A DNA stretch of 64,000 bases from a virus: the IMG/VR virus record IMGVR_UViG_3300020477_001468, positions 11,022-75,021 of that record. One strand, 5' to 3'. This document shows, one piece after another, positions 624 to 59,832 of this stretch. A program made the translations under genes and the position numbers. The notes under the pieces were generated by a model, which was not told the DNA's origin, searched no databases, and saw only the letters and a list, made by a program, of their open reading frames with translations. Numbering within the stretch: position 1 is the stretch's first letter; every line of letters starts with the position of its first letter.

Positions 624-1335
624 CGCAATAGGCATTATAGGTTTTGGTAGTATAGGTAAAAAATATTACAATCTAATTGAGGATGGTAAAATTAAAGGTG
701 CTGAAATAGGTGCAGTATGCCGTGATGATTTTATGCACTATAGTGATCTACTTGAATCCAACTATTGTGATATGATTATTGTATCTACACCTCATGCATC
801 ACATTATGAAATAGGACTAGCGTCATTAGAACTTGGTTACCCAACTCTAATAGAAAAACCAATGTCTATGAATAAACAAGAATACCAAGAACTAATTGAT
901 GCTGGTGCTGTCACATCATTTAGTACAAGATATGCAGGTAAACTTAAAGCTAAAAACCACATATACTGGTCAGTAAATTGGTATAGAGATGAAGGTTATT
1001 ATAAAGGTTGGAGAGGAGAATATGATCATATTATATGGAATCAAGCTATTCACAATTTAGATATATTACAATGGTCTTTTGGAAATCCAATAGTAACGTT
1101 TTCTGAGCAAGACAAATATAACATTTTGTGTAAGTTAACTTTTCCAAATGGAATTACATGTGAATATCATGCTAGCACAAATAAAAAGCAACTCCAATCT
1201 ACTTTAATCATAGATGGTATAAAACAACCATCACCCACACGTACACCTGACCATAAACAACTTCTGCAAGATTTTGTAGATAAGAAATTAAATTCTCCAA
1301 CTATAGATATAGTTAATTTAATAGAGCAATTATGA
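616..1335 (+). CDS. Gfo/Idh/MocA family NAD(P)-dependent oxidoreductase
   Basis: GIIGFGSIG Rossmann motif, STPHASH, EKP, NQAIHNLD. Confidence 0.85.
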   Translation: MSNAIGIIGFGSIGKKYYNLIEDGKIKGAEIGAVCRDDFMHYSDLLESNYCDMIIVSTPHASHYEIGLASLELGYPTLIEKPMSMNKQEYQELIDAGAVTSFSTRYAGKLKAKNHIYWSVNWYRDEGYYKGWRGEYDHIIWNQAIHNLDILQWSFGNPIVTFSEQDKYNILCKLTFPNGITCEYHASTNKKQLQSTLIIDGIKQPSPTRTPDHKQLLQDFVDKKLNSPTIDIVNLIEQL

Positions 1336-2048
1336 GTAGCTTGTTTGTATTTGGTGATAGTTTTACTTATGGAATGAAAGAAAGTGAAACACATTATGAA
1401 GAAAAACATGAAGGGCAATTAAAAAATTGTTTTGTAAATTTGATAGGTAAACACTACAATTTAAATGTTGAAAATTATTCACAACCTGGAACTAGCAATC
1501 ATATACAAACTGCAGAATTATTTAAAAATCTAATAACAAAGAAAATTAAATCTAATGATGTTGTGATATTTGGAATAACATCTCCTTCAAGAAATCCTGA
1601 GGTTCTTGATTATAGAGGAAAATATTATATTGATAGATACTTGTTTAGTTATTTTAACACACTAATGCAAATAAACAACTATAGTCAATATTTTCATAAA
1701 AATGTTCTTGTACTTAAATTATTTGAAGATCCAGTTGTTCGTCATCATATTGCAGCTACACCTAAACAATATTCTCAACAAGATATATTTGATTATATTA
1801 AAAATTTAAAACCAACATACTTCATACCTTTTACAACAGTTGATATCTTATTAGATAATTTAAAAGCACTTCCAAACCACTTACACCATGAACGCTTAAA
1901 GATAGATTCCTCTCATGAAAAATATTTTCAACCTAAAGGACATCCATCAGAAGAAGGTCATATTAAAATTGCTGATTATCTTATTAAATACATAGATAAG
2001 AATTTTAAAAATTTTATTCCATTAGTAGATCCATTTATATATGATTAA
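1332..2048 (+). CDS. SGNH/GDSL-like hydrolase or acyltransferase
   Basis: FGDSFT at N-terminus, PGTSN, HPSEEGH near C-terminus. Confidence 0.7.
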   Translation: MSSLFVFGDSFTYGMKESETHYEEKHEGQLKNCFVNLIGKHYNLNVENYSQPGTSNHIQTAELFKNLITKKIKSNDVVIFGITSPSRNPEVLDYRGKYYIDRYLFSYFNTLMQINNYSQYFHKNVLVLKLFEDPVVRHHIAATPKQYSQQDIFDYIKNLKPTYFIPFTTVDILLDNLKALPNHLHHERLKIDSSHEKYFQPKGHPSEEGHIKIADYLIKYIDKNFKNFIPLVDPFIYD

Positions 2049-2889
2049 TGTACCGATACATCGTATTGAACTCAATCCAACTGAACTGTGTAATCGTTTA
2101 TGCAGTTTCTGTCCTAGAGCTTATGACTATCCTAATCTCAATTTAAATATGACAGCTGATACAGCTGAAGAAATAGTTTTACAAACCAACCAATACACAA
2201 ACTACATTTGCATTGCAGGACGAGGTGAGCCTTTACTGTGCCCAGAAATAAAAGAAATATGCCAAGTAATGGCATTATATAATCGAAAGTTTTACCTTCA
2301 GACTAATGGAGATTTTTTAGATAAACATATTCAAGAATTAGATGCAATTATGAATTTAAAGAAACTCCCAAAAAATGGACATTGCAAACTATTAGTAAAT
2401 TGTTATGATGGTGTAGAACAAAAATTAGAAAGACAAGCAAAATGGCAACAATATGCTGCATTAAAAATAACTGCTGCAAGAGAAGATGATCCAACTTTAG
2501 AAGAATACAAATCAAGAATTGCTACAGGTAAGTATGTAAATCGTGGTGGATATTTACCTTGGACTTTTTCACCAGCTGTTCAAAGTCCTTGTTATATTTT
2601 ATTTCACAAATGTTATATCAATTGGAATGGAGACATACAGATTTGTTGTCATGATTGGAAGGTAATGAAAAGTTTTGGTAATATTTTTGATAAACCATTT
2701 CAAGAAATATGGGAAGGTGAAGAGTTAATGAAATACAGACTAACTCTTCAACATGCAGGTGGAAGACAAAAATTTGAAGAATGTAAAAACTGTGATGCTA
2801 TCCAACAATGGGAAGATACAAAACGATATTATGAATCTTGGGTAAAAAAGAATGTAACTCGAACTCAAGAATGTCCCTCTTTTGAATAA
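2041..2889 (+). CDS. Radical SAM enzyme with C-terminal SPASM/twitch domain
   Basis: CNRLCSFC, GRGEP, TNG; C-terminal C..INWNGDIQICC...CKNC. Confidence 0.9.
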   Translation: MINVPIHRIELNPTELCNRLCSFCPRAYDYPNLNLNMTADTAEEIVLQTNQYTNYICIAGRGEPLLCPEIKEICQVMALYNRKFYLQTNGDFLDKHIQELDAIMNLKKLPKNGHCKLLVNCYDGVEQKLERQAKWQQYAALKITAAREDDPTLEEYKSRIATGKYVNRGGYLPWTFSPAVQSPCYILFHKCYINWNGDIQICCHDWKVMKSFGNIFDKPFQEIWEGEELMKYRLTLQHAGGRQKFEECKNCDAIQQWEDTKRYYESWVKKNVTRTQECPSFE

Positions 2890-3569
2890 CTTCTTATAAC
2901 TGTTCTTACATAATCTGGTACTTGTTCACATGTTTCAGCAAATGTAAAAGGTTGATTCTTTTTAGACCACTCACTTGTTCTATTACATCTAATATCAAAA
3001 CCATGATATATCATATGTACTCTACGCTCATTAGACTTATTTTCAATACGATGATAATTAGACAAGTTAAGTAAACGAGCCTCTCCAGGTTTCCATGGAA
3101 CAACTTTGTTTCCTAATATAAAATCACACTCTTCTGGATGATTTAAACTAAAATTAACTGCATCCCCTAACATACAATCAGTAGAATCTTGGTGTGAGTA
3201 AATAATTCCTCCTGGCTCCAACAACATCCATCTTATGCGTTTGTGTCTTTTTACTGGCCAAATATTTTTAAAAAAATTATATGTAACATTACATGCATTA
3301 GCCATTTTTGTCCAACCAAGTTCTCCATTATGTTCATGGTATTCTTTTGATTCTGTTGAAGTTGTAGCATAAGTACCTTGTCCATGCAATACTAAACTCT
3401 TCCATCCACCATTACTATAGTCTGATCTATGTACAACAAAATCATCAAGAAATGGTTCTATTTCCTCATACATTTCTTGATATGGAAATTCAATATCTAA
3501 TTTTAAATTTGTAAGACCACTTTTAAGTATAGATTCATATTTTTCTAATTCTTCTTTTGTAATCTTCAT
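2865..3569 (-). CDS. Aspartyl/asparaginyl beta-hydroxylase-like Fe(II)/2OG oxygenase
   Basis: LEPGGIIYSHQD (HxD) and HRIENKSNERRVHM. Confidence 0.8.
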   Translation of the reverse strand: MKITKEELEKYESILKSGLTNLKLDIEFPYQEMYEEIEPFLDDFVVHRSDYSNGGWKSLVLHGQGTYATTSTESKEYHEHNGELGWTKMANACNVTYNFFKNIWPVKRHKRIRWMLLEPGGIIYSHQDSTDCMLGDAVNFSLNHPEECDFILGNKVVPWKPGEARLLNLSNYHRIENKSNERRVHMIYHGFDIRCNRTSEWSKKNQPFTFAETCEQVPDYVRTVIRSYSKEGHS

Positions 3570-4935
3570 ACTCTTTGCGTCTCCAAGGAAAATTTAAATT
3601 CTCAACAGGCTGTATTGAATAGTCATCTAAAAAAGAAAACTTAATATCAGATTTTATAGGAGCAAATTCGTGCTCAGGACAATTGCCTATAAAAACTGAA
3701 CACTTGTTAGCAGCTATTTTTATTTTCTTTAAAATTATATCTGTTTCTAAAACTGAATAATTATGAGCAGTAATTGAATAATTGCTTACATTTGAAAAAT
3801 ATAAAATACACTTCTTATCTTCAACCAAAGCAATCATTGCTGATGGGTCTAACATATTAACTAATTTATAATTGCATTCTATTTTTTTATTATTAATTAA
3901 TTCAATTACATCAAGCAATTCAGGATTTTGATCGATAATACGAATAAAATAGTTATTCAAATATTCATGCGTCATTCTTACTAGAGGAATTTTTATATCA
4001 CCAACAACAGAATATTTTTGAAAATTTGCATAGTGTTCTTGTTCATCACAAAATTCTCCATATGAGGTTTCTTGTGGTGACCAATTAGAAATGAGTTCTT
4101 TTGTAAAGCGTAAGGAGTTTTCATTGATATCACAGAATGTAATACTTTTTAATTTGGTATGTGTATATAACAGTGCTTGTAAACCATTAGCACAACCTAC
4201 AAAATGTTCATAAGGCTCAATCTTAATTTCATCACGATCATATTGTGTTTCAGTAGACCATGCAAATACCCGTTGATTCTTTTTTTGAAAAATGTCTAAT
4301 TTCTGAGGATGTACTCTATAATATCCTTTATGTTTTTTCCAGTCTATATACAAAAATCTTTTATCATCACGTACCGTTCGATTAAATGGTTCAATTTTTT
4401 TACCTGCTCTAAGTAGGTTAGATATTAAGTATGCTCCAGATGGTAATTCTTCACCATGTAAATCACAACCATATATGTAAATTTCTTTGCCACCATCCTT
4501 TATCCAAATAGGAGTATAATCATCATGAAAATTTTCTTCAGATCGTTCAACAGATCTCAACGTCTTAGTTCTAGTAACATCATAATCTGCAACCTTCACA
4601 ATAAAACATTGATCATGAACAGCCCAATATCTTGAACCTTTATCTAAAATATGTCCTACTAATGAAACTGTCTCATAATCAAAATTATCTAATAAAACTC
4701 TAAAATTAAATCTTGTACCTATTTTAACGACAAGTGCAAATTCTGTAGTACAAGATGTTATATCTTCATCTCTTAAATATTCAACGTACTTATAACTGCC
4801 GCCAAATGTATTAATTACATGATCCATAACATTTATGGCTAAATTGTACTCTTTTGAATAATTTTGTAGATTATAATTTTCTACTACTATAATTGTAAAG
4901 CGTTCGGCAGGTTGCTTTTTATATGGTGTGATCAT
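3535..4935 (-). CDS. Hypothetical protein, possible modification enzyme
   Basis: 466-aa ORF overlapping the oxygenase gene; no motif confidently recognised. Confidence 0.5.
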   Translation of the reverse strand: MITPYKKQPAERFTIIVVENYNLQNYSKEYNLAINVMDHVINTFGGSYKYVEYLRDEDITSCTTEFALVVKIGTRFNFRVLLDNFDYETVSLVGHILDKGSRYWAVHDQCFIVKVADYDVTRTKTLRSVERSEENFHDDYTPIWIKDGGKEIYIYGCDLHGEELPSGAYLISNLLRAGKKIEPFNRTVRDDKRFLYIDWKKHKGYYRVHPQKLDIFQKKNQRVFAWSTETQYDRDEIKIEPYEHFVGCANGLQALLYTHTKLKSITFCDINENSLRFTKELISNWSPQETSYGEFCDEQEHYANFQKYSVVGDIKIPLVRMTHEYLNNYFIRIIDQNPELLDVIELINNKKIECNYKLVNMLDPSAMIALVEDKKCILYFSNVSNYSITAHNYSVLETDIILKKIKIAANKCSVFIGNCPEHEFAPIKSDIKFSFLDDYSIQPVENLNFPWRRKEYEDYKRRIRKI

Positions 4936-4938
4936 AAT

Positions 4939-5385
4939 TTAATTTAATAAGATATCTTCACTTTCTTCTTCTAATTCGTCCATTTGTTTTTTTACTTTCT
5001 TATCTATTAACTCTCGGGCCAATTTATCAGAATAGGCCTTCATATTATTAAGATGTATATGAGTTAATTGCTCGGTATAAGAATGGCTTTCGTTTTCAAG
5101 TTCCATTGCTCTTTCTACAGCATCTATTGCATTATCTATCCACTCACTTTTCCATATCCCACTCACAAATCTTTTATCCTTAGTATGATAAGAAGGTTCA
5201 CCAGAATCATTTACATACCATAAATGTAAAGTACCAATATAACCATCTTCCTGAGCATCAAAACCTTGAAAAATATGTTTGATTCCCATTGCTGGTAAAA
5301 AAGGATATTTTGAGTCTTGATAGAACTTATATCTAAATTGTAATTCTACCCCTTTACGAATTTCTTGTAGTGTTAAATCATCCAT
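4939..5385 (-). CDS. Hypothetical protein
   Basis: 148-aa ORF abutting its neighbours. Confidence 0.6.
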   Translation of the reverse strand: MDDLTLQEIRKGVELQFRYKFYQDSKYPFLPAMGIKHIFQGFDAQEDGYIGTLHLWYVNDSGEPSYHTKDKRFVSGIWKSEWIDNAIDAVERAMELENESHSYTEQLTHIHLNNMKAYSDKLARELIDKKVKKQMDELEEESEDILLN

Positions 5386-5630
5386 TAGTTTATTTTATAC
5401 TTTCTATCAACGTGTCTTACTTTGGCTTCCTCATGATCATAGATGTATGCTTCTTTGATTGGGCCGTCAATGTGTTTATCCCAATAATCTAAAAATTCAT
5501 GAATACGTGGATATTCAGGAAGACGATCTTCAGTTTGCCAAGCAAATTCATTAAGAATATGTACATAGTCTGGAATGTGGTATATGACTTGTACAGTTGC
5601 AAGAGTCCATTTGGGTATATATACAACCAT
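5385..5630 (-). CDS. Usg-like family protein
   Basis: T..V.YHIPD...L..F.WQ..D..P.YP....FLDYW...IDGP resembles the Usg family pattern (recalled, not searched). Confidence 0.7.
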   Translation of the reverse strand: MVVYIPKWTLATVQVIYHIPDYVHILNEFAWQTEDRLPEYPRIHEFLDYWDKHIDGPIKEAYIYDHEEAKVRHVDRKYKIN

Positions 5631-6850
5631 TACTCGTAACTTTCGTATAATTCTTCTATTTCATCAGCGGTCAATGATCTGTTATATACTCTGAAATCAT
5701 CAATATAACCGATCCATCCACCACCACCATTTCTATTCATTCCTATTTTAAGTTTATCCCATAAAGTACTTATAGGATAGGAATAAGTTTTAAGGACACC
5801 ATCTTTATATACTCTAATTTTTTGATTATCGCCAGTAGAAGTATCCGTAGTTTTTGTATAAGTAAAAAACATCCATTCTTCTTCCATATCTACTTTCATA
5901 ATACCACCACCAACAGTTTCATTGAATCTTAACTTTTCATATCCATCATGATCTATTTGAAATCTACCTCCACTCGTAGAATTTGTTCCTGTTGACATTA
6001 CTGAATGCCATTGATCAAAACTTTGATTGCTCAATTTTGGTAATATCCAAAATGAAATAGTCCAATCATCGGATAAACCTATTGGGCTAGTACTATTATC
6101 TCTAAATTCAGTCTCTATGCAACTACTGCCTAAAAAGTTTCCAGTTTGACCAGAAGGTGCATCTGTCAGGGTTGAAACACTTGCATCATACATTGCATTA
6201 CCCGAACCATATGCATTTGTACATTTTTTAAATACTCTTTCATAAGAGCTATGATCTTTAACTATTGATTGTCCCGATACAGTAGCATGTGTTTCTTCAA
6301 ACTTGAGATGTACTAATAATGATGTATCTATAACTTCAGTTTCGTTGTCTGTAACTGTTTCATTATCAGTAGTTTCTTCTTCCTCTTCTGTTTCAATATC
6401 AACTATTTCTTCGTCTTCTTCTGGAAAAGGATAATCTGGATTAATATCAACATCAACCCAAACTTTAACTATGTAATCATCTTCCCATGTAACAATAAAT
6501 TCTTCTGATTCACCGTATTGAAAAGGTATTTCAGGTTCTTCATATGTCCAATTAGTATATTCAACATACATTGGTTTATCAATAGGAACTTCTACTTCAG
6601 CTCTTAAATCTTCATCTAAATCAACATCTGCAATATTTGGTTCTACTTTAATATTATGTCTATACGGTATTGTATTTTCAATCATTGCTCTTTGAGAGGC
6701 ACTATATTTTGAAAATTCAAAATCACGAAATGCTTCATTATGATTATAATTAATCGTAACTGACGTTCCTTGTCTTCTTAATGTTCCTTCATCAGGCAAA
6801 TCTCCACATCCTACTAATAAAAATATTAAACTGAAAAAGAGTATATGCAT
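5630..6850 (-). CDS. Lipoprotein with C-terminal LamG/concanavalin A-like domain
   Basis: Signal peptide with LVGC lipobox, acidic linker, WTISFW...GYIDDFRVYNRSLTADEIEELY. Confidence 0.8.
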   Translation of the reverse strand: MHILFFSLIFLLVGCGDLPDEGTLRRQGTSVTINYNHNEAFRDFEFSKYSASQRAMIENTIPYRHNIKVEPNIADVDLDEDLRAEVEVPIDKPMYVEYTNWTYEEPEIPFQYGESEEFIVTWEDDYIVKVWVDVDINPDYPFPEEDEEIVDIETEEEEETTDNETVTDNETEVIDTSLLVHLKFEETHATVSGQSIVKDHSSYERVFKKCTNAYGSGNAMYDASVSTLTDAPSGQTGNFLGSSCIETEFRDNSTSPIGLSDDWTISFWILPKLSNQSFDQWHSVMSTGTNSTSGGRFQIDHDGYEKLRFNETVGGGIMKVDMEEEWMFFTYTKTTDTSTGDNQKIRVYKDGVLKTYSYPISTLWDKLKIGMNRNGGGGWIGYIDDFRVYNRSLTADEIEELYESYE

Positions 6851-6865
6851 TGTGATTGAAGGGTG

Positions 6866-6898
6866 CTAAATAAGTATAAGACCTGCTAGAATATTTAT
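6866..6898. promoter_or_regulatory. Crossed pair of T4-type late promoter motifs
   Basis: CTAAATA on + (6866-6872) and ATAAATA on - (6892-6898) in the 64-bp divergent gap. Confidence 0.5.
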
Positions 6899-6914
6899 CA
6901 TTAGTGATTTTGAT

Positions 6915-7751
6915 ATGAAACAAAGATGTATCTTTACGTTATTAATAAACTCAGCTACCCCATACAACAATAATCATCTAAACATAAAATCAACTAACAA
7001 TCAGCAACAAAATACCTTACCTTTATATTATGATCTATTTAAAGTATTGAATGAGGATAGGCAGGATTATGCAACTTTTTGTGATAGTGATTATATGTGT
7101 TATGAACTCAATGATGAATTTATTGAATTTGAACGTGCGATAAAAAATAAATGCATTTCATTTACTCCTTATGATGTTATTCAGTATTATAAAATACACT
7201 TATGTGAACAATTAAGCAAACAATATAAAGAAGTATTATATTTAGACTTTGATGTTATAATAGGTGATGTAAAGAAGAATTTTTTTACTGAGTGGGATTT
7301 ATCAAAAGGGTTAGTAATAAAAAATGAATTTTTTGACTGTACCAAATTCCAATATACACCAGGCATGTCATCCAGATACATAAAAGCATTCTTAGCTCAT
7401 CTTGTATTAAAGTATATGAACATTGACCATGATGCGACTTCATTACCTCATATTAATACTGGAATATTAGGATGCAATAATCAATCAATTTCATCAATAA
7501 ATTTTTTTGATATTCTATATGAGAGTTTAAAAATCTTGGATGATATCTATTTAAATGAAAAAGAACACTGGAAATATGTACGTTTTTCTAATGAAATTGT
7601 CTTTACAGTATCATGGTATTTAAATAAATTTAAAATGCAATCTATAGTGGACGATCAAAATATTTGGCATAAAAAAGCAAATGGTGTAAATGATCTGAAC
7701 AGTGTTTTTTTACACTGTACTGGTAAACATTGGTTAGAATTATACACATGA
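6915..7751 (+). CDS. GT-A fold glycosyltransferase
   Basis: YYK, YLDFD, INTGI, SNE, WH and LHC motifs. Confidence 0.75.
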   Translation: MKQRCIFTLLINSATPYNNNHLNIKSTNNQQQNTLPLYYDLFKVLNEDRQDYATFCDSDYMCYELNDEFIEFERAIKNKCISFTPYDVIQYYKIHLCEQLSKQYKEVLYLDFDVIIGDVKKNFFTEWDLSKGLVIKNEFFDCTKFQYTPGMSSRYIKAFLAHLVLKYMNIDHDATSLPHINTGILGCNNQSISSINFFDILYESLKILDDIYLNEKEHWKYVRFSNEIVFTVSWYLNKFKMQSIVDDQNIWHKKANGVNDLNSVFLHCTGKHWLELYT

Positions 7752-8272
7752 AATTAGTTTCAAAATCAATAAAACCATGGTATACTTGTTGGGTATATCA
7801 TGATGCTGTATGTCAAGTATGGTTAAAGCGTGTTACAGGTATAGATTTTGATATAGAGAGTTTTCTAGAATTTAATGATCGTTATAATATTGTTCATAGA
7901 CCAATTAGCATATCTTATGAGTCTAAAATTTTAGAATATGAGATGGAAGATATTTCTAAGTATCAATCCTTTAAGTGCAATAATAACATAGAAATTTTTA
8001 ATTGTTTTCAAGACATTGTACATTTTTTTAGATGCTTTAATGAATACTCTAAAGATCGTACCAACATCTTTTATCATGCTGATATGACAAAAGCAAATAT
8101 GATTTATAAAGATGGAACAGTGAAATTAATTGATATAGATAGTTTTCTTTGGAATACACCAGAAAGATATCGTCATTATATGATGGATAAGATTAAGCTA
8201 TCTTGGCAAACGATTGCCCTAGAGCAATATTTAGATTGGGACAAACTAACAAATCAATTTAGTTTTAAATAA
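7748..8272 (+). CDS. Protein kinase-like fold phosphotransferase
   Basis: YEME...HADMTKANM...KLIDID (HxD..N and IDxD); ATG at 7748 forms an ATGA overlap with the upstream stop. Confidence 0.7.
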   Translation: MKLVSKSIKPWYTCWVYHDAVCQVWLKRVTGIDFDIESFLEFNDRYNIVHRPISISYESKILEYEMEDISKYQSFKCNNNIEIFNCFQDIVHFFRCFNEYSKDRTNIFYHADMTKANMIYKDGTVKLIDIDSFLWNTPERYRHYMMDKIKLSWQTIALEQYLDWDKLTNQFSFK

Positions 8273-9121
8273 ATGAATTTTTTCAACAGACAAAAAATAA
8301 ATCTTGATTTATCAAACACATGCACACTACAATGTGGTGGTTGTGAAAGAAATAATTATGAAAAAGTACCAGGATCAAATCTTACAATACAGCAGTTTAA
8401 AAAAATTGAACCCTTTGTAAACGATTTTTCATTTTGTGGTCAAGTATCTGATCCAATATTTAACCCACATCTACCAAAATTTTTGGAAATAATTTTCAAA
8501 AACAATAAACATGTTTCAGTAAGTGTAGCAGCTTCTCATAAATCAGAAAAATGGTTTGAAAAGTGTTTTAATGCTAATCCAAAAGCATTATGGATATTTG
8601 GAATTGATGGATTACCATCTATGAGTCACAAATATAGAATAAATCAAGATGGTGTAAAATTATTTAATATAATGAAAAAGGCAGCAACAATTCTTGAGGA
8701 AGTACATTGGCAGTATATTGTTTTTGATTATAATAAAGATTATATTAAAGAAGCAGAAAAGATTGCAAATAGTATCAATGTAAAGTTGTTATTGAGAGAG
8801 AATACACGACATATAAATGACAGAAGTTTTGGAAACAGTTTTGAATTGAAAAAAAATACAAGTATCAAACCAAAATGTTTTGAGAACAAAAGATTAGGTT
8901 ATTCATCTCAAGGATTTATACTTCCATGTTGTTGGTGTGATATATCAAATCCAGAAGAAGATGTACAAAAATTATTCGACAAAAAATTAAATATTAATAA
9001 TAGTTCTTTTGAAGATATAATTTTATCTGATGAGTGGATTAATTTTAAAGAAAAAATTATAAATGATCCACCTCAACTGTGTCAATTTTATTGTAGTGTA
9101 AGTTTAAAATCACCTCTGTGA
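8273..9121 (+). CDS. Radical SAM enzyme with fused C-terminal twitch/SPASM domain
   Basis: CTLQCGGC, FCGQVSDP, FGIDG; C...GFILPCCW...CQFYC. Confidence 0.88.
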   Translation: MNFFNRQKINLDLSNTCTLQCGGCERNNYEKVPGSNLTIQQFKKIEPFVNDFSFCGQVSDPIFNPHLPKFLEIIFKNNKHVSVSVAASHKSEKWFEKCFNANPKALWIFGIDGLPSMSHKYRINQDGVKLFNIMKKAATILEEVHWQYIVFDYNKDYIKEAEKIANSINVKLLLRENTRHINDRSFGNSFELKKNTSIKPKCFENKRLGYSSQGFILPCCWCDISNPEEDVQKLFDKKLNINNSSFEDIILSDEWINFKEKIINDPPQLCQFYCSVSLKSPL

Positions 9122-9765
9122 AATAACTCTACAAAATATTGATTATCATGACTAAATGGTCCAAGTGAATGAGAAAAAGCAATCTCATTTTCAAATGTTG
9201 AATAAGTTAAATGTTCCCATTCAATAAATCTATCAATATGACCCCAATATTTTTCACTGTACATTTCAGGATTTTCCATAAAATGATCATAAATTTCATG
9301 TACTAAAGGATCATCTCCATTCCAACAAGTAAGTGATCCATTTATAGTTGTTTTGTAAGTGTAATCATAATATTCATCAATTCTTAAATCCATGTCTTTT
9401 CTATATTCTTTACCATATACACCTTGATAATTTTTTAAATCTTTCCAATGAGCTTGTATACATTTGATACCATTTTTTACGTTGATTAACTTACTGAAAT
9501 CTTTTATAATTTTTACGTCTAAGTCACAGACGAGGTTTAAACCTTTACTAAAACCTTTTCTAAATAAATTTATACGACGATTAAAATTATATGGAAAATC
9601 ACCAATATCAATTATATCAACGTATCTTTCCAATCCTTCAGAATTATCAGTATATAAAAATATTTTGTTAGGTATGGTAAGTTTAAATTTTATATCATGA
9701 ATAAGTTTAGTTACATAACCAGCATGATACTTATCACCCCACTTCATTAAGTAGATATTCAACAT
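9088..9765 (-). CDS. Glycosyltransferase (KWGxKY-type GT-A)
   Basis: MKWGDKY, YTD, CDLD (DxD), NGS. Confidence 0.75.
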   Translation of the reverse strand: MLNIYLMKWGDKYHAGYVTKLIHDIKFKLTIPNKIFLYTDNSEGLERYVDIIDIGDFPYNFNRRINLFRKGFSKGLNLVCDLDVKIIKDFSKLINVKNGIKCIQAHWKDLKNYQGVYGKEYRKDMDLRIDEYYDYTYKTTINGSLTCWNGDDPLVHEIYDHFMENPEMYSEKYWGHIDRFIEWEHLTYSTFENEIAFSHSLGPFSHDNQYFVELFHRGDFKLTLQ

Positions 9766-10447
9766 GATCTTTTTCTGTGTTAAAGTTGGAACAAAATATT
9801 CTTCCCAAGTTGTAAATAATCTTTATAATCAACTAGATAGGTATTATTCTGGTAGAGTTTATTTACACTGTTTAACAGATGATGATATAGGTATATATAA
9901 TGATATTCAAACAATAAAAATAAATAAAGCAGACACATGGAAAAAATTACAATGGCATAAGACTTCTTTTTTTCGGAAAAATTTTAATGGTTTTAATAAT
10001 AATGAAGAAGTCATAGTATGTGATATTGATATAGAAATACTCAAAAATATAGATAAATTAGTTGATTTTCCTATTAATAGATTTGCGGCTGCTCGAAGAT
10101 GGTGGATGTTAGAACATGGTCAAATGAGTGGTACATGGTATAAATTTAAAATAGGTGATTTAGCACATGTTGATACACAATTTGATAAAACTTGGCAAGA
10201 GTACTGGGTGCAAAATAAATTAGTTGCCCCACCCGTTAATGGCGAACAAAATTATGTAGAAGGTATGGTTGAATCAGTATGTGAAATAGATTATTTTCCT
10301 GATACATGGTTTACAAAATGGACCGATAATGATGAAAGAAATCGCTTAATACAACAAGACTTTTATAAACTAACAAATGATATGCTCTATTTTGGTACTT
10401 TTCATGAGGATATTAAAATAGTACACTACGCAGGTTATAATAGATAA
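9764..10447 (+). CDS. Glycosyltransferase (KWGxKY-type GT-A)
   Basis: KVGTKY, CLTD, WHK, CDID, GEQ, VHYAG. Confidence 0.75.
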   Translation: MIFFCVKVGTKYSSQVVNNLYNQLDRYYSGRVYLHCLTDDDIGIYNDIQTIKINKADTWKKLQWHKTSFFRKNFNGFNNNEEVIVCDIDIEILKNIDKLVDFPINRFAAARRWWMLEHGQMSGTWYKFKIGDLAHVDTQFDKTWQEYWVQNKLVAPPVNGEQNYVEGMVESVCEIDYFPDTWFTKWTDNDERNRLIQQDFYKLTNDMLYFGTFHEDIKIVHYAGYNR

Positions 10448-10464
10448 ATAGAGAATATAGGAGA
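10444..10464 (+). promoter_or_regulatory. Late promoter motif plus Shine-Dalgarno
   Basis: ATAAATA (10444-10450), then AGGAGA a few nt before the ATG at 10470. Confidence 0.5.
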
Positions 10465-10469
10465 AAATT

Positions 10470-11276
10470 ATGCCACTCGATTATGATACCTTAATTAAAC
10501 CAATATGTGATGATATAGATACAAATTATACTGGTTATAAAAATTATTATATTAACCAAATGTATCTACCCATATATTGGGATAAAAATGCAATTGTTAC
10601 TGTCTATGCTCATATTGCTGAATCAGTTATTGTATATTTAAATGCTAATCATGCCGGTAAAAGATTCCTTGAATGTAATATGAAAGATGGTTTAATAAAA
10701 TATTACAATGAAGATGCAACAAACGGGCTTGCTAATCCTTTAAACATCAAAAGTGCATGTCATCTAGCAGACTGGCATACAGCAGTCACATGTAGCAGAA
10801 CAGGAGATACAACATCAGATATATCTGATGCTGCATCCATAAATGAAAATCCAGATGACCATAATGGATTCTTTTTTATTAGAATGAAAGCGGCTTTAGG
10901 TGTCCAAGCTGATTATTGTCGTATAGCACGGCCATTGGATGGTAATTATCCAACAGATTGGATCCAAACAACTCCTAATGATGCAACAGCTATTGATCTT
11001 AATAATTTTGATATGTTACTTATAGGTGTACCTGATGCACAAATTTTTAACGATGTTAACAATTTTAAATCTACAACTGGATATAATGGATCAATTCTTT
11101 TTTATGATGTTGGCTTTGAAGGTGAAGATGAGGAATCACGAAGATCGTTAATTCTTTCAGATATGGGATTAACATGGGATGATATGAAATATAAGAATGA
11201 TAACTGTGTCTTAGCAAATCTACCAGCACATGACGTTGTTGATCTGAGTGGCCATACTGGATATTTAATATCATGA
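10470..11276 (+). CDS. Hypothetical protein
   Basis: 268-aa ORF with strong RBS; no recognisable motif. Confidence 0.7.
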   Translation: MPLDYDTLIKPICDDIDTNYTGYKNYYINQMYLPIYWDKNAIVTVYAHIAESVIVYLNANHAGKRFLECNMKDGLIKYYNEDATNGLANPLNIKSACHLADWHTAVTCSRTGDTTSDISDAASINENPDDHNGFFFIRMKAALGVQADYCRIARPLDGNYPTDWIQTTPNDATAIDLNNFDMLLIGVPDAQIFNDVNNFKSTTGYNGSILFYDVGFEGEDEESRRSLILSDMGLTWDDMKYKNDNCVLANLPAHDVVDLSGHTGYLIS

Positions 11277-11280
11277 AGGA

Positions 11281-12189
11281 ATGAAAAACCTGTTTATTAC
11301 GCATTTGTATAGACAAGGTAATGGTGATATAATTCAACTACTATCTAATATACATAATGCTGTTTCTAATAATGCTTATATACTATTTGATAACTCATTT
11401 ACCCGTGATGGTATAAAAAGACCTTTTAGTTATGAAGAACAATTTGCTGTTTTAGAAAATCAAATAAAAAAAATAATATTCTGGAACGAGGTGTTCCTTG
11501 ATAATGCTCCAGCTGTTAATATTATATACAAAGGTCGTATTATTAATAGTAAAAAACATTTTGAATTTTTAACTGATAATAATAAACTTTTTGATGTAGC
11601 AACATTAACAAAAATAGATTTAAATACTGAACAGTGTAAAGTAACATATCAAGAAGATTGGATTGATTTTGTTAAAAAACATAATATGGTGTTTTTTCCT
11701 TCTACTTTTAAGCATCAACCAAAAGATCATATTGGATTGAGTTTACGCACAGATTATTCAGCATATGGATTTGATACACTTGATTGGCTTGAATGTGAAT
11801 ATATTGAACAAATGTTTCAGGATCAAAAAATTAAATATATTGATTATTTTATTGATCAATCTTTGTTACAATTTCCATCCCATAAAAAAAGATTTGGTTC
11901 TTGGAAAGGTCAAGGTATAGCTTTTCATGTTAATGATACGATTACAAATCAAGATATTCAAAATTTTAAAAATTTTTGTGAAGATTTAAAAACATGTAAA
12001 TTTTTAGTATGTACAGAAGGTGGGATGAGTCATATGGCTGCATGTATGAGAATACCATTTTACATCTTTGGAAATTTTAATAGAGACAATGAGGAAGCAT
12101 TTCTTGAACTGTGGCAAAACTATTACGCTCCCCATGGTATTGTAACTGAAGATTTAATAACTTTAAAAGAAAGGGTATATGAAACTTAA
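11281..12189 (+). CDS. Putative GT-B (GT9-like) glycosyltransferase
   Basis: N-terminal GNGD and C-terminal TEGGMSHMAACMRIP, like the GT9 D[ST]G..HLAAA...P motif. Confidence 0.55.
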   Translation: MKNLFITHLYRQGNGDIIQLLSNIHNAVSNNAYILFDNSFTRDGIKRPFSYEEQFAVLENQIKKIIFWNEVFLDNAPAVNIIYKGRIINSKKHFEFLTDNNKLFDVATLTKIDLNTEQCKVTYQEDWIDFVKKHNMVFFPSTFKHQPKDHIGLSLRTDYSAYGFDTLDWLECEYIEQMFQDQKIKYIDYFIDQSLLQFPSHKKRFGSWKGQGIAFHVNDTITNQDIQNFKNFCEDLKTCKFLVCTEGGMSHMAACMRIPFYIFGNFNRDNEEAFLELWQNYYAPHGIVTEDLITLKERVYET

Positions 12190-12277
12190 ATATAGGTTAA
12201 GATACTACTGGTACAAATTTAAACATCTTTTTATAAAAAGAAAAAAGAAAGATCCACCAATTTATATCTATGACTGA
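12179..12277 (+). CDS. Small basic/aromatic peptide, 32 aa: MKLKYRLRYYWYKFKHLFIKRKKKDPPIYIYD
   Basis: Translated by hand; fills the gap, overlaps both neighbours, preceded by purine-rich AGAAAGGG; absent from the ORF track. Confidence 0.65.
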   Translation: MKLKYRLRYYWYKFKHLFIKRKKKDPPIYIYD

Positions 12278-13454
12278 TATGGTAAAGTGTCCAGTACCTA
12301 ATTCTTGTTTAACAATAAATCCTGATGGAACATTAGCACCATGTTGTCAGGCATCATTACCTTTTGAGCGTGACGATAAATTTATTTCTCTTCAAACAAC
12401 AGATTCATTACTTAATTTTTTTAATAGTCCTTTTTTAAATAATATTAGAGAAAATATTAAAACTAAAGGTATCCATCCAAGATTATGTAATGAATGTATT
12501 GATCAGCACAATAATAATGAACGTACATTCATGGATATGTACGATGATACACTTGTACGATTATGGAAGATTAATAGAAAAGACTTATCATACCTTGAAT
12601 TAACTACAAGTAATTTATGTAATCAAACTTGTACCACTTGTAATGGCTTTCTTTCTTCAGCTTGGAATATACTTGATAAGAAAATTTTAAAAGCATATCC
12701 AGGTTTAGACGAAGATTTAAGTGAGAAGAGAGTTAGCAGGCATTGGATAAAAAATGATATAAGATTAACACAAAAAGATATTGATAAGATAAAACCAATT
12801 TTACCTAAATTAAGAGTGTTTTGTATAAAGGGAGGTGAACCTTTTGCTGATAAGAAAAATATGGATCTGCTTGAATATCTTGCAAAAGTTAATCCAGATT
12901 GTTATGTTCAAATAATAACCAATTTTACGTTAGTAGATAAGTATATTCATATACTGAAAAAATTTAGACGTCTTGATGTAGATGCTAGTGTTGATGGTCT
13001 ATATGATCAATATGAATGGATGCGAAGCTCAAAGTGGAAGAAATTGCTTGAACAAATGGATCTTTATATTCATAAAACACGTAAGCAAACAATGATTAAT
13101 ATTACTGTTTCAATTTACAACTATTTTAATTTACATGAAATAATTAAATATTGGGATAAGAGTCCTTATTCAAGAACACTTGCAGCAACAAATATTGTAC
13201 ATCATCCAAAAATATCAAGTTTTAAATTTTTAAAGCAAGACTACTTAAATATGTTTTATGATAAAATTGATCCAAATTTTACTGGTATTGTACTTGATCG
13301 TCCAACGTCTTTTAAAGACCAAGATTTAAAATTTAGTAGAAAATTTTATTATCAAAAAATGCAAAAATGGATTGATGTAATGGATAGTATGAGAGGATTT
13401 AAATTAGTTGATTCAGTACCTGAATTAAACCTATTAGAAGAGATGATATTATGA
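12270..13454 (+). CDS. Radical SAM enzyme with N-terminal SPASM/twitch-like domain
   Basis: CPVP...PDG..APCC...CNEC, then CNQTCTTC, GGEP, TN, SVDG. Confidence 0.9.
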   Translation: MTDMVKCPVPNSCLTINPDGTLAPCCQASLPFERDDKFISLQTTDSLLNFFNSPFLNNIRENIKTKGIHPRLCNECIDQHNNNERTFMDMYDDTLVRLWKINRKDLSYLELTTSNLCNQTCTTCNGFLSSAWNILDKKILKAYPGLDEDLSEKRVSRHWIKNDIRLTQKDIDKIKPILPKLRVFCIKGGEPFADKKNMDLLEYLAKVNPDCYVQIITNFTLVDKYIHILKKFRRLDVDASVDGLYDQYEWMRSSKWKKLLEQMDLYIHKTRKQTMINITVSIYNYFNLHEIIKYWDKSPYSRTLAATNIVHHPKISSFKFLKQDYLNMFYDKIDPNFTGIVLDRPTSFKDQDLKFSRKFYYQKMQKWIDVMDSMRGFKLVDSVPELNLLEEMIL

Positions 13455-14293
13455 TTTTATGTTTTGGTTGTAGCTTCACAGATCATACTAAAGTTTCTTT
13501 TTGTGAACCCACTCGTGATACAGACTTTATAAGATGGCCAAAAATTATAGGCAAAATGCTTAATAAAAAATCTTATAATTTAGCTTTAAGTGGTTTATCT
13601 AATGATGCTATTCAACAAAGAATTAAAACAGAACTTGTAAAACATCATAAAGAAATTGATTTTGTTTTTGTACAATGGACAGAGTGGTATAGATTTTCAT
13701 TAATGCATAATACGATGTATAGTTTCATGTTTACGCATCTTGTTGATGAGTGGTTAGAAACATTTCATAATGCTGAAAGCGAAGGCTATTTAAAAGATAT
13801 CTCTCCAAATTTTAAAAATAATATTGATATGGAATCACATCATTTAATGAATATGATGCATTTTTTAAATTATAGATATGAAAAAGATACAACTGAAGCT
13901 GAAAAACGCAGAGGAATAGCTTCTAAAGATTTTATAAATTATTTTGTGATTGGAGTTTACCATACAATACAAAAATTTTGTGAGGCATATAATATACCAA
14001 TTATTCACATTCAAGGTGTAGGAATTACTCCCACTGAAGGTTATTGTAATGTTTTAAATGTACAATATGGTCAGTACCAAAAAGAAATGTTGGAGAATTA
14101 TATGGAGCTGTTTGTTGATAATTTTATAGGATGGCCTATAATGCCTGCTCTAGGTGGACATACAATTGCTGATAAACTTGATGAACATGGAGAAGATTTA
14201 TATATTTCTATAATGGATAGACACCCAAATGCAGAAGGTCATGAAATGATAGCTGAACTTTTTCTTGACAGATATAAGATGTTATATGTATAG
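13451..14293 (+). CDS. SGNH-like hydrolase or acyltransferase
   Basis: FGCSFT, GLSN, QWT, HPNAEGH. Confidence 0.7.
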   Translation: MILCFGCSFTDHTKVSFCEPTRDTDFIRWPKIIGKMLNKKSYNLALSGLSNDAIQQRIKTELVKHHKEIDFVFVQWTEWYRFSLMHNTMYSFMFTHLVDEWLETFHNAESEGYLKDISPNFKNNIDMESHHLMNMMHFLNYRYEKDTTEAEKRRGIASKDFINYFVIGVYHTIQKFCEAYNIPIIHIQGVGITPTEGYCNVLNVQYGQYQKEMLENYMELFVDNFIGWPIMPALGGHTIADKLDEHGEDLYISIMDRHPNAEGHEMIAELFLDRYKMLYV

Positions 14294-15038
14294 AAATGCT
14301 TTTAGACAACAAAAAATAAATGCATGGGTTGATTTATCTACCTTGTGTAATGCAAAATGTCCTCAATGCCATAGAACCAATCCTAATGGATTAGATAAAC
14401 AAGAATGGCTACCTCTTGTTCAATGGACATTATTAGATTTTAAAAAAGCATTTCCAATACAAACACTAAAGCACATTCAAAGATTTGAAATTTGTGGTAC
14501 ATGGGGTGATCCAATAGCAAATAAAGATATTGATAAAATTGTTGAATATATTATTAATCATTCTAATAGTGAAATTATTATCAATACAAATGGTAGTCTT
14601 AGATCAAGAAATTGGTGGTATAAATTGGGTATGATTGGTAAAAAAAGATTATCAATTTTCTTTGCCATAGAAGGTATTGATCAAGAAATGCATAGTGCAT
14701 ATAGAGTAAATACTGATCTACGAAAAATTCTTGACAATATGTTAGAATTTGGTAAACATAGTATTGTAAAAGTATTTGTAGTTGTTTTTGATCATAATGA
14801 AGATTACTTGGAAGAAATATATCAAATGTGTGAACTTTATAATTCTAAAGAAACATTATTTTTTCCTTCAAACAGATTTGGTCCACATCCAGATTTTGAT
14901 TATGTGTACAAAAACAAGCAACTGAAACTAAAACCAGTACGCAGTATGGATAGTCCTTTTTATCGCCCAGAGGATGCATATAAATGGAAAATTAATTTAA
15001 CTGGTAAACATAAAAAAGATATGCATTTAAAGTTATGA
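14286..15038 (+). CDS. Radical SAM enzyme (core domain only)
   Basis: CNAKCPQC, CGTWGDP, TNGS, FAIEG; ATG at 14286 preferred over the track start. Confidence 0.9.
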   Translation: MYRNAFRQQKINAWVDLSTLCNAKCPQCHRTNPNGLDKQEWLPLVQWTLLDFKKAFPIQTLKHIQRFEICGTWGDPIANKDIDKIVEYIINHSNSEIIINTNGSLRSRNWWYKLGMIGKKRLSIFFAIEGIDQEMHSAYRVNTDLRKILDNMLEFGKHSIVKVFVVVFDHNEDYLEEIYQMCELYNSKETLFFPSNRFGPHPDFDYVYKNKQLKLKPVRSMDSPFYRPEDAYKWKINLTGKHKKDMHLKL

Positions 15039-15385
15039 AAAAAATAATATGTCAATGGGAAAAGGTTGATAAAGTTTTAATCAATCCTGATGGACAAGTA
15101 TTTCCATGTTGTTATCTATCAAATCCAGCTTACACTGCTAAAATTCAAGAAGCAAAAGACGGCAAGGTTTCATATGGATGGGATGTTGTGAATGATCCAA
15201 CACCAACTGCAGAAACTAATGTAATTAGAAAATATTATGAACATGAAAAAGATTTAAATGTTTTTAACAAATCTTTAAGTGATGTCCTTGCTCATAAATG
15301 GTTTCAAGAAATATTACCAAAATCATGGGAAGATGAAAAAACTTGCCATAAAATTTGTAAAATGATGTGTGAACGTGAAGTCTAA
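15035..15385 (+). CDS. Stand-alone SPASM/twitch Fe-S domain protein
   Basis: C...INPDGQVFPCCY...ICKMMC; ATGA overlap with the upstream rSAM. Confidence 0.85.
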   Translation: MKKIICQWEKVDKVLINPDGQVFPCCYLSNPAYTAKIQEAKDGKVSYGWDVVNDPTPTAETNVIRKYYEHEKDLNVFNKSLSDVLAHKWFQEILPKSWEDEKTCHKICKMMCEREV

Positions 15386-16541
15386 ATTTTGTCCTGCACC
15401 ATGGTATCATTTATCAACTGATACTAATGGATCATTAAGACCCTGCTGTAAATTCTCTCAACCACAACTTCAGCAAAAGCATAAAATGCCTTTTATGTAT
15501 GAAGGTAGATTAGATGAATTGTGGAACAGCAAAAATTTTAAATCATTACGTCAAGATTTTATAGATGGAAAGCAACCAAAAGAATGTGAAATATGCTGGA
15601 ATGAAGAAAACAACAATGTAAGAAGTTATCGTGAAAATTTAATTGATTGGTTTAAGAGTAGTTGGGAGCATTGTGATTTTACAAAGGTAGAAGCACCTCC
15701 TCCTACGTCTTTTGATTTCAAGGTCACAAACTTGTGTAATATGAAATGCAGAATTTGTGGACCAACAGCATCAAGTTTATTTTTTGAAGAAGCCAAATCT
15801 TATATGAGATTAACCTATAATGAGGCCTATTTAAAAGACAACAAAATAACACAAACTAATAATAGAGAAATATTTTTAAAATGGTTACCACATATAAAAC
15901 GTATTGAAATTACAGGTGGTGAACCTCTAGTTAGTCCTGAAAATAAAGAAATGATAAAGTTAATATGTGATCAAGGTCACGCAGATCATATTGACTTACA
16001 AGTTACTACAAATGGTAAACTTTTTATTCCAAAATTTAATGAATATTTAAAACAGTTTGAAAGAGTAATCATATCGTTAAGTATTGATGATATCACTGAT
16101 AGATTTGAATACCATAGATATCCATCTAATTGGAAAAAAGTTAAATCAAATATAGACGATTATATAAAATTAGATAAAGACAATCATAATATACAAACAT
16201 ATCTTTATTGTACAGTAAGTAATTATAATATCTTTTACTTAGATGAATATTGTGATTATTTTAGCTATCTACCAAAAAATCAATATAATTTTGGTTTATT
16301 ATTTTATAATGATTACTGGTGCATTCAAAATCTACATCCATATATTAAAGAAATTATATTAGACAAATTAAACGACTATGAAAAATTACATCCTGTAATT
16401 AATTACTTATCAGGTAAAGGCAAAGACCTTACTAAAAAATTTTTGATAGAAACTTCAAAGTTTGATAGACTTAGACAGCAACAATTTTCAACAACATTTC
16501 CAGAATGGTATGATATTCTCAGCATGCATCGCACCCTTTAA
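15369..16541 (+). CDS. Radical SAM enzyme with N-terminal SPASM/twitch-like domain
   Basis: CPAPW...RPCC...CEIC, CNMKCRIC, GGEP, TNG. Confidence 0.9.
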   Translation: MNVKSKFCPAPWYHLSTDTNGSLRPCCKFSQPQLQQKHKMPFMYEGRLDELWNSKNFKSLRQDFIDGKQPKECEICWNEENNNVRSYRENLIDWFKSSWEHCDFTKVEAPPPTSFDFKVTNLCNMKCRICGPTASSLFFEEAKSYMRLTYNEAYLKDNKITQTNNREIFLKWLPHIKRIEITGGEPLVSPENKEMIKLICDQGHADHIDLQVTTNGKLFIPKFNEYLKQFERVIISLSIDDITDRFEYHRYPSNWKKVKSNIDDYIKLDKDNHNIQTYLYCTVSNYNIFYLDEYCDYFSYLPKNQYNFGLLFYNDYWCIQNLHPYIKEIILDKLNDYEKLHPVINYLSGKGKDLTKKFLIETSKFDRLRQQQFSTTFPEWYDILSMHRTL

Positions 16542-17514
16542 TAATATGTATTTTGCAGTACAAGGTCAAGCATCACCTTGTTGGCTGTCTAGTGGATATT
16601 TGGATAAGTGGTCTAAAACCAAATCAATCAAAGAAATCTGGCGAGGTCAAAAATATCAACAATATAGAAACAATTTAAGATGGGATATATTTGAAGATCA
16701 ATGTACAATATGTAAGGATGATATTGATAATGGAAGATGGCCTTTAGCTAAAGCATATGAAGATTTTAGTGTTGATTTTGAATATCCTACATTGATGGAA
16801 TTGGAATTAAGCAACCAATGTAATCTTGAATGTTTAATGTGTTCTGGAATATTAAGTAGTGGTATTAGAAAAAATAGAGATAAATTACCACCACTAGAAA
16901 TACCTTATGATGATAGTTTTGTAGAACAGCTTAATGAATTTATCCCTTATCTTGAAGAATTAAGATTTAATGGTGGTGAACCAATGCTACAAAACATTGT
17001 TCATAAAATTTGTAACAATGTCGCAAAAATAAAACCAGAACTTAAAATTAATATTGCAACAAATGGTACCGTTTACAATAAGAGAGTTCAAACCTTATTA
17101 AATAAATGCAATATACATCTTAATATTTCTATAGATGGGTTCTCTAAAGACGTATATGAAAAAATAAGAATAAATGCAAATCATGACACCTTAATGAAAC
17201 ATTTTGATATTTTTTTGCGATACTGTAAAGATGGTAAGAGAGAATTATCTGTTATGGTAAACCCAATGAGAAACAATTGGTGGGAAATGCATAAGTTTGT
17301 TGAATGGACACATAAACACAATGTCAATTTATGGTATAACACAATTAGGTATCCTGAACATTTAGCATTATGGAATTGGGAGGATAAGTTACATAGTGTG
17401 TATGATAGTATGAGTTTATGTTTAAGGCAAATGCCAAATTTTCAAAATAAAGATAAGTATGAACATTTAGTGGAAAGGCAAATAAAGACTTGGTATGAAA
17501 AGATGTCTCTATAG
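16510..17514 (+). CDS. Radical SAM enzyme with N-terminal SPASM/twitch-like domain
   Basis: CIAPF...PCW...CTIC, CNLECLMC, GGEP, TNG, SIDG; ATG at 16510 preferred. Confidence 0.9.
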   Translation: MIFSACIAPFNNMYFAVQGQASPCWLSSGYLDKWSKTKSIKEIWRGQKYQQYRNNLRWDIFEDQCTICKDDIDNGRWPLAKAYEDFSVDFEYPTLMELELSNQCNLECLMCSGILSSGIRKNRDKLPPLEIPYDDSFVEQLNEFIPYLEELRFNGGEPMLQNIVHKICNNVAKIKPELKINIATNGTVYNKRVQTLLNKCNIHLNISIDGFSKDVYEKIRINANHDTLMKHFDIFLRYCKDGKRELSVMVNPMRNNWWEMHKFVEWTHKHNVNLWYNTIRYPEHLALWNWEDKLHSVYDSMSLCLRQMPNFQNKDKYEHLVERQIKTWYEKMSL

Positions 17515-59798: not shown

Positions 59799-59803
59799 AA
59801 TAT

Positions 59804-59823: not shown

Positions 59824-59832
59824 TTATTTTAA

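Follow-up and report, generated by a model that had tools for sequence, protein, structure and literature searches.

Fused, permuted and separate twitch-like domains in a set of radical SAM enzymes from a marine T4-like phage

What might a marine phage do with seven radical S-adenosylmethionine (SAM) enzymes? We analyzed a stretch of 64,000 nucleotides (nt), here called the window, that spans bases 11022-75021 of a 75-kb linear IMG/VR contig (record IMGVR_UViG_3300020477_001468; completeness estimate 43%). Nine open reading frames (ORFs) in it, A to I, encode seven radical SAM (rSAM) enzymes, and all nine are intact. A preliminary description made from the sequence had taken them for a phage-specific clade with SPASM auxiliary domains in three architectures, and with unknown chemistry. 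The reading that we favor, at a probability of roughly 55%, is that they form a mobile multi-enzyme rSAM set that is not a phage invention and that likely tailors sugars or a glycan. The enzymes would derive from three old SPASM/twitch lineages, represented by A (a core with a C-terminal twitch), by B, D and H, and by C, F and G, the last being members of NCBIfam family NF033640. Seven rSAM genes in 64 kb are far from chance, given how rare even distant relatives are among 50,697 deposited phage records (18 records for F, 4 for D and 9 for A).

Three arrangements of core and auxiliary domain are present. In A (2041-2889, plus strand; CNRLCSFC) the rSAM core is followed by a C-terminal twitch-like domain with C184, C202/203, C248 and C251. 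The same order is found in B (8273-9121, plus strand; CTLQCGGC), which has a divergent core in which SDP replaces GGE and a C-terminal twitch-like domain with C202, C219/220 and C270x3C274. The auxiliary domain is N-terminal in C (12270-13454; CNQTCTTC), F (15369-16541; CNMKCRIC) and G (16510-17514; CNLECLMC), all on the plus strand. In the remaining two enzymes it is encoded separately: D (14286-15038, plus strand; CNAKCPQC, CNAKCPQCHRTN and CGTWGDP) is a core-only subunit joined by an ATGA overlap to E (15035-15385, plus strand), its putative stand-alone twitch-like subunit. On the minus strand, the core-only H (59154-59798; CNLACYGC and GDLGDP), of the same family as B and D, has a 29-nt overlap with I (58898-59182), its putative twitch-like subunit (C7/8, G22, C27/28, C77x3C81). 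The ORFs of D and G open at TTG codons (14265 and 16462), and their likeliest starts are ATG 14286 and ATG 16510. Each of the seven enzymes (A, B, C, D, F, G and H) has a single CxxxCxxC motif, toward the N-terminal end of its core, and all cluster cysteines and GGE-type motifs are kept in the nine ORFs. Thus the multi-gene set with C-terminal, N-terminal and separate auxiliary domains was described correctly at the outset, and its seven motifs read in the translations as they had been quoted.

Pfam Radical_SAM (PF04055, gathering threshold 29.5 bits) is above its gathering score, at 31-43 bits, in six of the seven enzymes (A, C, D, F, G and H), with 34.9 bits for A, 34 bits for D and 35.4 bits for H. 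The domain is below threshold or undetected in B, which is placed as an rSAM protein only via its homology to D and H. Pfam SPASM was found in A (53.7 bits), C, E (25.6 bits), F and G, and more weakly in B (E-value just 0.031) and I (E-value 3e-4, 21.4 bits against a cut-off of 21.5). All seven enzymes should cleave SAM by the radical SAM mechanism.

Despite the name of that profile, the auxiliary domains are better described as twitch-like. SPASM domains have 7-8 cysteines and twitch domains 3-4 (PMC9477430). None of the auxiliary domains examined has the seven or eight conserved cysteines, including CX2CX5CX3C, of a SPASM domain. They combine Cx11-13Gx4C(C) with CxxC in A, C, F and G or with Cx3C in B, E and I, giving 4-5 conserved cysteines, and the twitch pattern of 3-4 conserved cysteines is found in the sequences. 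Four to five conserved cysteines imply one extra cluster for each domain, so each enzyme would hold a SAM-cleaving [4Fe-4S] cluster in the core and one auxiliary [4Fe-4S] cluster in the twitch module. The SPASM label of the preliminary description is therefore withdrawn, and the high iron-sulfur (Fe-S) cost that it had stressed is probably about two clusters per enzyme, core plus one twitch, not the three of a full SPASM enzyme.

Pairwise comparison of the enzymes gives three groups: A by itself, B with D+E and H+I (24-32% identity), and C with F and G (21-27%). The seven enzymes thus appear to represent three old families whose members are old paralogues. The family of C, F and G, NF033640 (N_Twi_rSAM, 'twitch domain-containing radical SAM protein'), has a curated cut-off of 170 bits, which F (298.1) and C (188.2) pass. 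G scores 146.4 bits, below the cut-off, in an alignment over profile positions 4-344, and is placed within the family by a tree. In all three proteins Pfam SPASM lies at residues 7-84 and Radical_SAM starts at about residue 113. Because the N-terminal 80 residues of the N_Twi profile align to the C-terminal twitch of BtrN with an E-value of 1e-5 (4m7t residues 186-258; 4m7s residues 166-241), this N-terminal domain is a relocated twitch. Its cysteine columns are invariant in 78 sequences. The phage proteins share with the family a Cx12Gx4CC...CxxC N-terminal module, CN(L/M)KC(R)(I/M)C and GGEP, and tandem arrays of paralogues occur in the family as they do here. They differ in that G is under the cut-off and the phage copies form shallow subclades of their own; the family was curated without an assigned reaction.

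The distribution of NF033640 contradicts the notion of a phage-specific clade, as this is a curated bacterial family in which phage and bacterial rows interleave. When one genome per prokaryotic species was scanned, 199 hits were confirmed; they come from Bdellovibrionota, Bacteroidota, Acidimicrobiales, Planctomycetota, Acidobacteriota and other groups, and some of their contigs reach 3 Mb. Tandem arrays are usual in bacteria (256 family ORFs in 77 of 78 bacterial N_Twi loci). The 344 full-length homologues of F are about 40% identical to it and include one named for a Ca. Fonsibacter metagenome-assembled genome (MAG), and orthologues of G are 59% identical in phage loci and 45% identical in a Chitinophagaceae MAG. 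A FastTree phylogeny of 182 non-redundant N_Twi proteins, which has long branches, contains 30 changes of label between phage and bacterium, at least 18 of them forced by well-supported branches, counts that mis-binned short MAG or viral contigs may blur; the Mb-size contigs are unaffected by such mis-binning. Phage-only groupings are shallow subclades only. C, F and G belong to different phage subclades, three in all, with C in a starred subclade of 7 phage rows and G in a starred clade of 4 phage and 4 bacterial rows; the supported clades that enclose the subclades of F and G have bacterial members too. Recent duplication within the phage as the origin of C, F and G is ruled out by their 21-27% identity and separate clades. 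We conclude that NF033640 enzymes are common to phages and bacteria, and not an invention of phages.

The three arrangements noted in the preliminary description all exist, but they are not three separate architectures, as fused, permuted and split forms occur inside the family of B, D and H. B shares 32% identity with D (E-value 9e-19) and 24% with H, and I matches the C-terminus of B at 34% identity. B has 1585 representative relatives, the top 150 of which include 34 with the twitch C-terminal to the core, 10 with the twitch N-terminal and 79 that are core-only. The 221 homologues of D are mostly 215-290 amino acids (aa) long; in the few of 351-369 aa the C-termini align to E. The C-terminal ends of the fused homologues P0227 and P0232 align with E, and those of B and of the fused homologue P0384 align with I; H is 35% identical to P0384. 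All three states are found among the nearest relatives of H at 26-33% identity by alignment, and permutation looks to have been caught inside this subfamily. In P0362, P0349 and P0369, also relatives of H, the twitch is N-terminal in some and C-terminal in others at about 30% identity.

The separation of D and E is evidently real and conserved. The CPQCHRT/CGTWGDP signature was confirmed in 206 stretches of IMG/VR, of which the best 80 are here called D-type viral loci; an E-like match is present in 77 of these. Among their 110 B/D/H-family ORFs, 72 are cores followed by a separate twitch ORF on the same strand, at varying frame offsets, and others have the twitch ORF upstream (4) or a twitch fused at the C-terminus (5) or N-terminus (5). 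Bacterial loci present another picture, with 12 of 19 family ORFs fused and none of the 19 adjoined by a separate twitch ORF. Residues C6, G20, C25, C26, C108 and C112 of E are invariant, and the invariant cysteine columns are kept at 25-46% identity. Since the frame of E is closed 7 codons, and that of I 3 codons, upstream of the ATG, neither gene is a recent frameshift; a frameshift artefact as the cause of the split genes is ruled out by these closed frames and a check of each locus. The H/I type of split is rare, with a core plus adjacent twitch ORF for 5 of the 116 family ORFs in H-like loci.

These patterns suggest that the twitch module may be an exchangeable part that can follow the core or precede it in one chain, or stand alone as a protein of about 100 aa. 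If the module is exchangeable in this way within one family, D+E and H+I would be two-subunit enzymes. Structure prediction for the D-E complex gave an ipSAE of 0.88, against 0.02 for the best control. Of 80 solved complexes, 58 attain this ipSAE mark, as do 2 of 110 mismatched pairs; the counts hold only roughly here because custom alignments were used. At least 85% of contacts agree between the D-E runs, and the partner pLDDT is at least 76. In the model, the first strand of D (residues 10-19), which lies just before the CxxxCxxC loop, is paired with a beta-hairpin of E (residues 11-20). The prediction supports docking of E on D, and its score may partly reflect likeness to solved single-chain SPASM/twitch enzymes. 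A twitch attached at either end of the core could reach such a docking site, and this would account for both orders of fusion.

The lack of an aromatic residue before the last cysteine of the CxxxCxxC motif might be taken for a phage peculiarity or a sign of odd SAM binding. Six of the seven motifs do lack an aromatic residue at this position, which is aromatic in A alone, and the same holds family-wide in bacteria. Among 120 homologues of F the residue is isoleucine in 117 and methionine in 3; in 208 bacterial N_Twi ORFs it is methionine or isoleucine in 168 and aromatic in 21. For the D family it is glutamine in 115 of 120 homologues and methionine in 10 of 16 bacterial ORFs. The position is highly variable in 123 representatives of the B family (aromatic in 16), and phenylalanine in 43 of the 45 A-family homologues that have the motif. 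A non-aromatic residue is thus a trait of lineages, in bacteria and phages alike. Because SpeY (7wzv; PDB name 'twitch radical SAM dehydrogenase SpeY') has CNMRCQSC, with serine at the aromatic position, an aromatic residue is not required for a working enzyme of the SPASM/twitch branch.

The likely function of the enzymes is suggested above all by their gene context, from which we infer the class of substrate; family and fold matches offer no equivalog or specific neighbor. The plus-strand island at bases 1-20,700 has a GC content of 27-30% and a positive GC skew; the adjacent minus-strand structural block (20001-48000) has 33-35%. Upstream of A are genes for a GFO/IDH/MocA oxidoreductase (616-1335, plus strand) and an SGNH/GDSL-like protein (1332-2048, plus strand), both identified by Pfam, and the latter overlaps the start of A by 8 nt. 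Another SGNH-like gene lies between C and D (13451-14293, plus strand; a weak match to the full Pfam GDSL profile, E-value 0.018), and its relatives form an ORF cluster in 28 of the 80 D-type viral loci. Candidate glycosyltransferases (GTs) of GT8-like type, with DxD motifs in the translations, follow G on the plus strand (17495-18565, 18553-19419 and 20013-20726). The Atlas clusters nearest to 18553-19419 have Glyco_transf_8 annotated on 11-25% of their members, a lead and no more. Further candidates with DxD are at 3-623, 6915-7751, 9088-9765 (minus strand) and 9764-10447. The protein of 11281-12189 (plus strand) has a C-terminus that reads CTEGGMSHMAACMRIPF, which we take to resemble the nucleotide-sugar motif of GT9/heptosyltransferases; it has no Pfam hit even at an E-value of 1.

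Genes of this kind recur around the enzymes elsewhere. Phage relatives have a recurrent order of three GT-like genes, D, E, two or three N_Twi genes and an SGNH-like gene; relatives of the DxD GT-like genes were found in 14-32 of the 80 D-type viral loci, and a carbamoyltransferase in 20. The bacterial N_Twi arrays have as neighbors fused D-type enzymes, GT1 and GT4 genes, carbamoyltransferase, PhyH-family dioxygenases, B12-rSAM and GDSL proteins, as well as a hydroxylase pair that is also present in the island. The pair consists of a cupin hydroxylase, an oxygenase of the Asp/Arg beta-hydroxylase family (2865-3569, minus strand; Pfam PF05118, 53.6 bits), and a neighboring 466-aa partner (3535-4935, minus strand). 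Of the 78 bacterial N_Twi loci, 6 have a relative of the first gene and 4 a relative of the second, adjacent where both are present; a single 808-aa ORF of locus L041 covers both matches, and the relatives in viral locus L243 share 45% and 43% identity with the pair. Distant relatives of A in Campylobacter phages and in cyanophage S-SCSM2R bear the annotation 'BtrN protein' or 'SPASM domain protein'. The one in S-SCSM2R adjoins an aminotransferase, between the baseplate hub and the long tail fiber, and one in Campylobacter phage CP20 ('BtrN protein') adjoins a glycine amidinotransferase. The island also encodes a 406-aa lipoprotein-type LamG protein (5630-6850, minus strand) whose signal ends in LLVGC; it also has an acidic linker rich in Thr and Glu, and a LamG/ConA-like lectin domain at the C-terminus.

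These carbohydrate-type neighbors favor the tailoring of a sugar or glycan. The radical chemistry would act at C-H bonds by dehydrogenation, epimerization, decarboxylation or deoxygenation, as by BtrN (4m7t), SpeY (7wzv) and BlsE (7vob), and the tailored glycan would decorate the virion or the surface of the infected cell. The likeness to these three enzymes lies in the pairing of a partial TIM-barrel rSAM core with a twitch domain for a single auxiliary cluster, in the alignment of the N_Twi N-terminal domain to the BtrN twitch, in BlsE as the top Foldseek match for the model of F, in the lack of the aromatic residue in SpeY, and in the carbohydrate-like gene context. The differences are an identity of only 14-19%, or 14-16% in the structural comparisons, and no equivalog-level score, a reversed order of domains in C, F and G, and a separate polypeptide in D/E and H/I. 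We found no match to a BtrN or SpeY equivalog among the seven, in keeping with the chemistry having been called unknown: the seven do not all cluster with a characterized family of known function. The AlphaFold model of F (pLDDT 93.6, pTM 0.90) has as its nearest folds viperin, CteB, MoaA, anSME, BlsE and SkfB at Z 11.6-13.5, which are generic rSAM cores, and the fold searches with this model gave no specific functional neighbor.

Several observations weigh against the sugar or glycan reading. None of the seven enzymes reaches an NCBIfam equivalog cut-off, the best being rSAM_BlsE for A at 16 bits against 400. Most neighbors are without a Pfam hit, including the approximately eight DxD ORFs of the window, so the GT reading consists of the DxD motifs and one Atlas lead. 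Most characterized SPASM/twitch enzymes modify peptides, peptide maturases are among the structural matches at the same Z as the sugar enzymes, and the Asp/Arg hydroxylase family also includes protein hydroxylases. H and I are outside the island, in a region of nucleotide metabolism, and mis-binning of some contigs would blur the counts from the N_Twi tree.

The main alternative is that the enzymes modify proteins or peptides, making for example cross-links, epimerizations or thioethers on tail-fiber or virion proteins or on a small precursor. We consider this doubtful. The island does abut a tail-fiber and baseplate operon and includes the Asp/Arg beta-hydroxylase-family gene, and CteB, SkfB, SuiB, EpeE and ChlB are structural neighbors at Z 10.5-12.0. 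The SPASM peptide maturases anSME, CteB, SkfB, SuiB and PqqE belong to the same branch of the superfamily, with core folds matching at Z 8.9-12.0 and with Pfam SPASM matches, but have 7-8 cysteines and two auxiliary clusters where the enzymes described here have 4-5 conserved cysteines. Nor did Pfam and NCBIfam scans find an RRE/PqqD-type domain in any of the seven, and no precursor peptide was found. Proteins with a serine tag or a shared leader are absent from the window, in which the only serine runs are antisense to acidic genes, and no conserved small ORF stands out among the recurrent gene clusters of the 80 D-type loci. The co-occurring genes (GT-like, carbamoyltransferase, SGNH, GFO/IDH/MocA) are of carbohydrate type. 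Peptide substrates that are small or independent of an RRE are possible.

A less probable alternative concerns H and I, which could act on nucleotides as a non-orthologous stand-in for QueE in 7-deazaguanine modification of DNA, as they lie between a FolE2 gene and a gene with some likeness to DpdA. FolE2 (61599-62645, minus strand) is identified by Pfam (194 bits) and NF010200 (218 bits), and no recognizable QueE or QueC is encoded in the window. The DpdA assignment of the 274-aa protein (58077-58901, minus strand) is a weak lead only, from one Atlas cluster at rank 20 with DpdA on 17% of its members. This gene adjoins one for a deoxynucleoside monophosphate kinase (57517-58080, minus strand), next to a dCTP-deaminase/dUTPase-like gene of the same module (57069-57539, minus strand). 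However, H has no match to the QueE family and is closest to B and D, and the module travels without the pair: an H- or I-like gene was found in none of the 80 viral loci with the 274-aa-gene module. Among these loci is L241, the closest relative, in which the 274-aa protein is 84% identical. In these 80 loci the 274-aa gene co-occurs with the dCTP-deaminase-like gene in 78 and with the gene matching phrog_17812 (61143-61595, minus strand; a PHROG match) in 74. Conversely, 80 H-like loci contain none of the nucleotide genes, and 31-47 of them hold N_Twi-type matches. A QueE role for H/I is rejected on family scores and the absence of linkage. Because the module is conserved without H/I and H-like loci are without the module genes, H/I looks like cargo inserted into a nucleotide-metabolism module.

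The H-like loci came from an alignment-based scan, as a search of viral contigs by exact words found no close relatives of H. The slot between the phrog_17812 and DpdA-like genes (58898-61142, minus strand) is variable, holding here H, I and proteins of 161 aa, 186 aa (rich in poly-Asp/Glu) and 82 aa. The corresponding slot of L241 (4386-5000) has a 138-aa ORF instead, and in L241 a phosphoribosyl pyrophosphate synthetase gene stands between FolE2 and the phrog_17812 gene. As a whole, 57069-62645 (minus strand) is a candidate DNA base-modification set with no recognizable QueC or QueE; searches of PDB sequences with 58077-58901 and 61143-61595 gave hits at chance level only.

That the set is decaying, non-functional passenger DNA and the split genes broken ones is very improbable: B is under the Pfam rSAM threshold, the H/I-type split is rare and the GC content of the island is below that of the rest of the window, but the nine ORFs are intact with their cluster cysteines and GGE-type motifs, the D/E split is kept with differing frame offsets in about 70 loci, cysteine columns remain invariant at the low identities given above, and near-identical DNA recurs in marine metagenomes.

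Within the favored reading of a mobile, sugar- or glycan-tailoring set, a more specific version is tentative. It holds that the twitch subunit acts in trans and has moved repeatedly between the C-terminus, the N-terminus and a separate gene, and that the cassette builds a heavily tailored, so far unseen sugar, exchanged between phages and bacteria to decorate virions or cell surfaces. If true, this would be a natural two-subunit rSAM system, a case of circular permutation in which genes split and fused again, and a new glycan chemistry among phages that abound in the ocean. SPASM/twitch rSAM enzymes have been described as single chains with a C-terminal auxiliary domain. Here one family occurs in all three states (C-fused, N-fused and split), and the split state is kept in dozens of ocean phage contigs; the window shows the three architectures side by side, with fused counterparts in bacteria and a second split pair inserted elsewhere. 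Our literature search found nothing on split or permuted twitch/SPASM domains, nor on twitch rSAM enzymes in phages; N-terminal cysteine sets in the SPASM/twitch megacluster are mentioned in passing, without structures (PMC9477430). As a split subunit can be left out or swapped, D/E and H/I would offer a clean system for the role of the auxiliary cluster. The cassette may mark an uncharted tailoring pathway common to marine T4-like phages and bacteria (Bdellovibrionota, Bacteroidota), and it is relevant to the question of how phages whose hosts live in oligotrophic ocean water can afford, and make use of, Fe-S chemistry that is sensitive to oxygen.

The nearest precedent in phages is found in the Campylobacter T4-like phages CP220 and CPt10, which encode 11-12 rSAM proteins in an exchangeable module of unknown role (Timms et al. 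2010, PMC2853527). These are likewise T4-like myophages with many rSAM genes in an exchangeable module, including distant relatives of A ('BtrN protein', 26% identity) and D (about 30%). They differ in host and habitat and in the low identity (26-30%), and the paper mentions neither an N-terminal twitch nor split subunits (PMC2853527).

The source phage is, by its gene content, an uncultured marine T4-like myophage, as the window encodes gp5, gp6 and gp8-type baseplate genes, gp32 and gp59. The gp6 protein shares 40-43% identity with those of Pelagibacter phage HTVC008M and the Methylophilales Melnitz phages, and a nucleotide search of the island against deposited phages gave no match. Beyond the possible source sample, at least four studies (2015-2025) of marine plankton and seawater yielded metagenomes with DNA near-identical to 12270-17514, in which 42-87% of sampled words are present. 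No RNA data set was listed for this stretch, which speaks neither for nor against its expression. Because these words recur in at least four metagenome studies, the phage population is most probably widespread and persistent.

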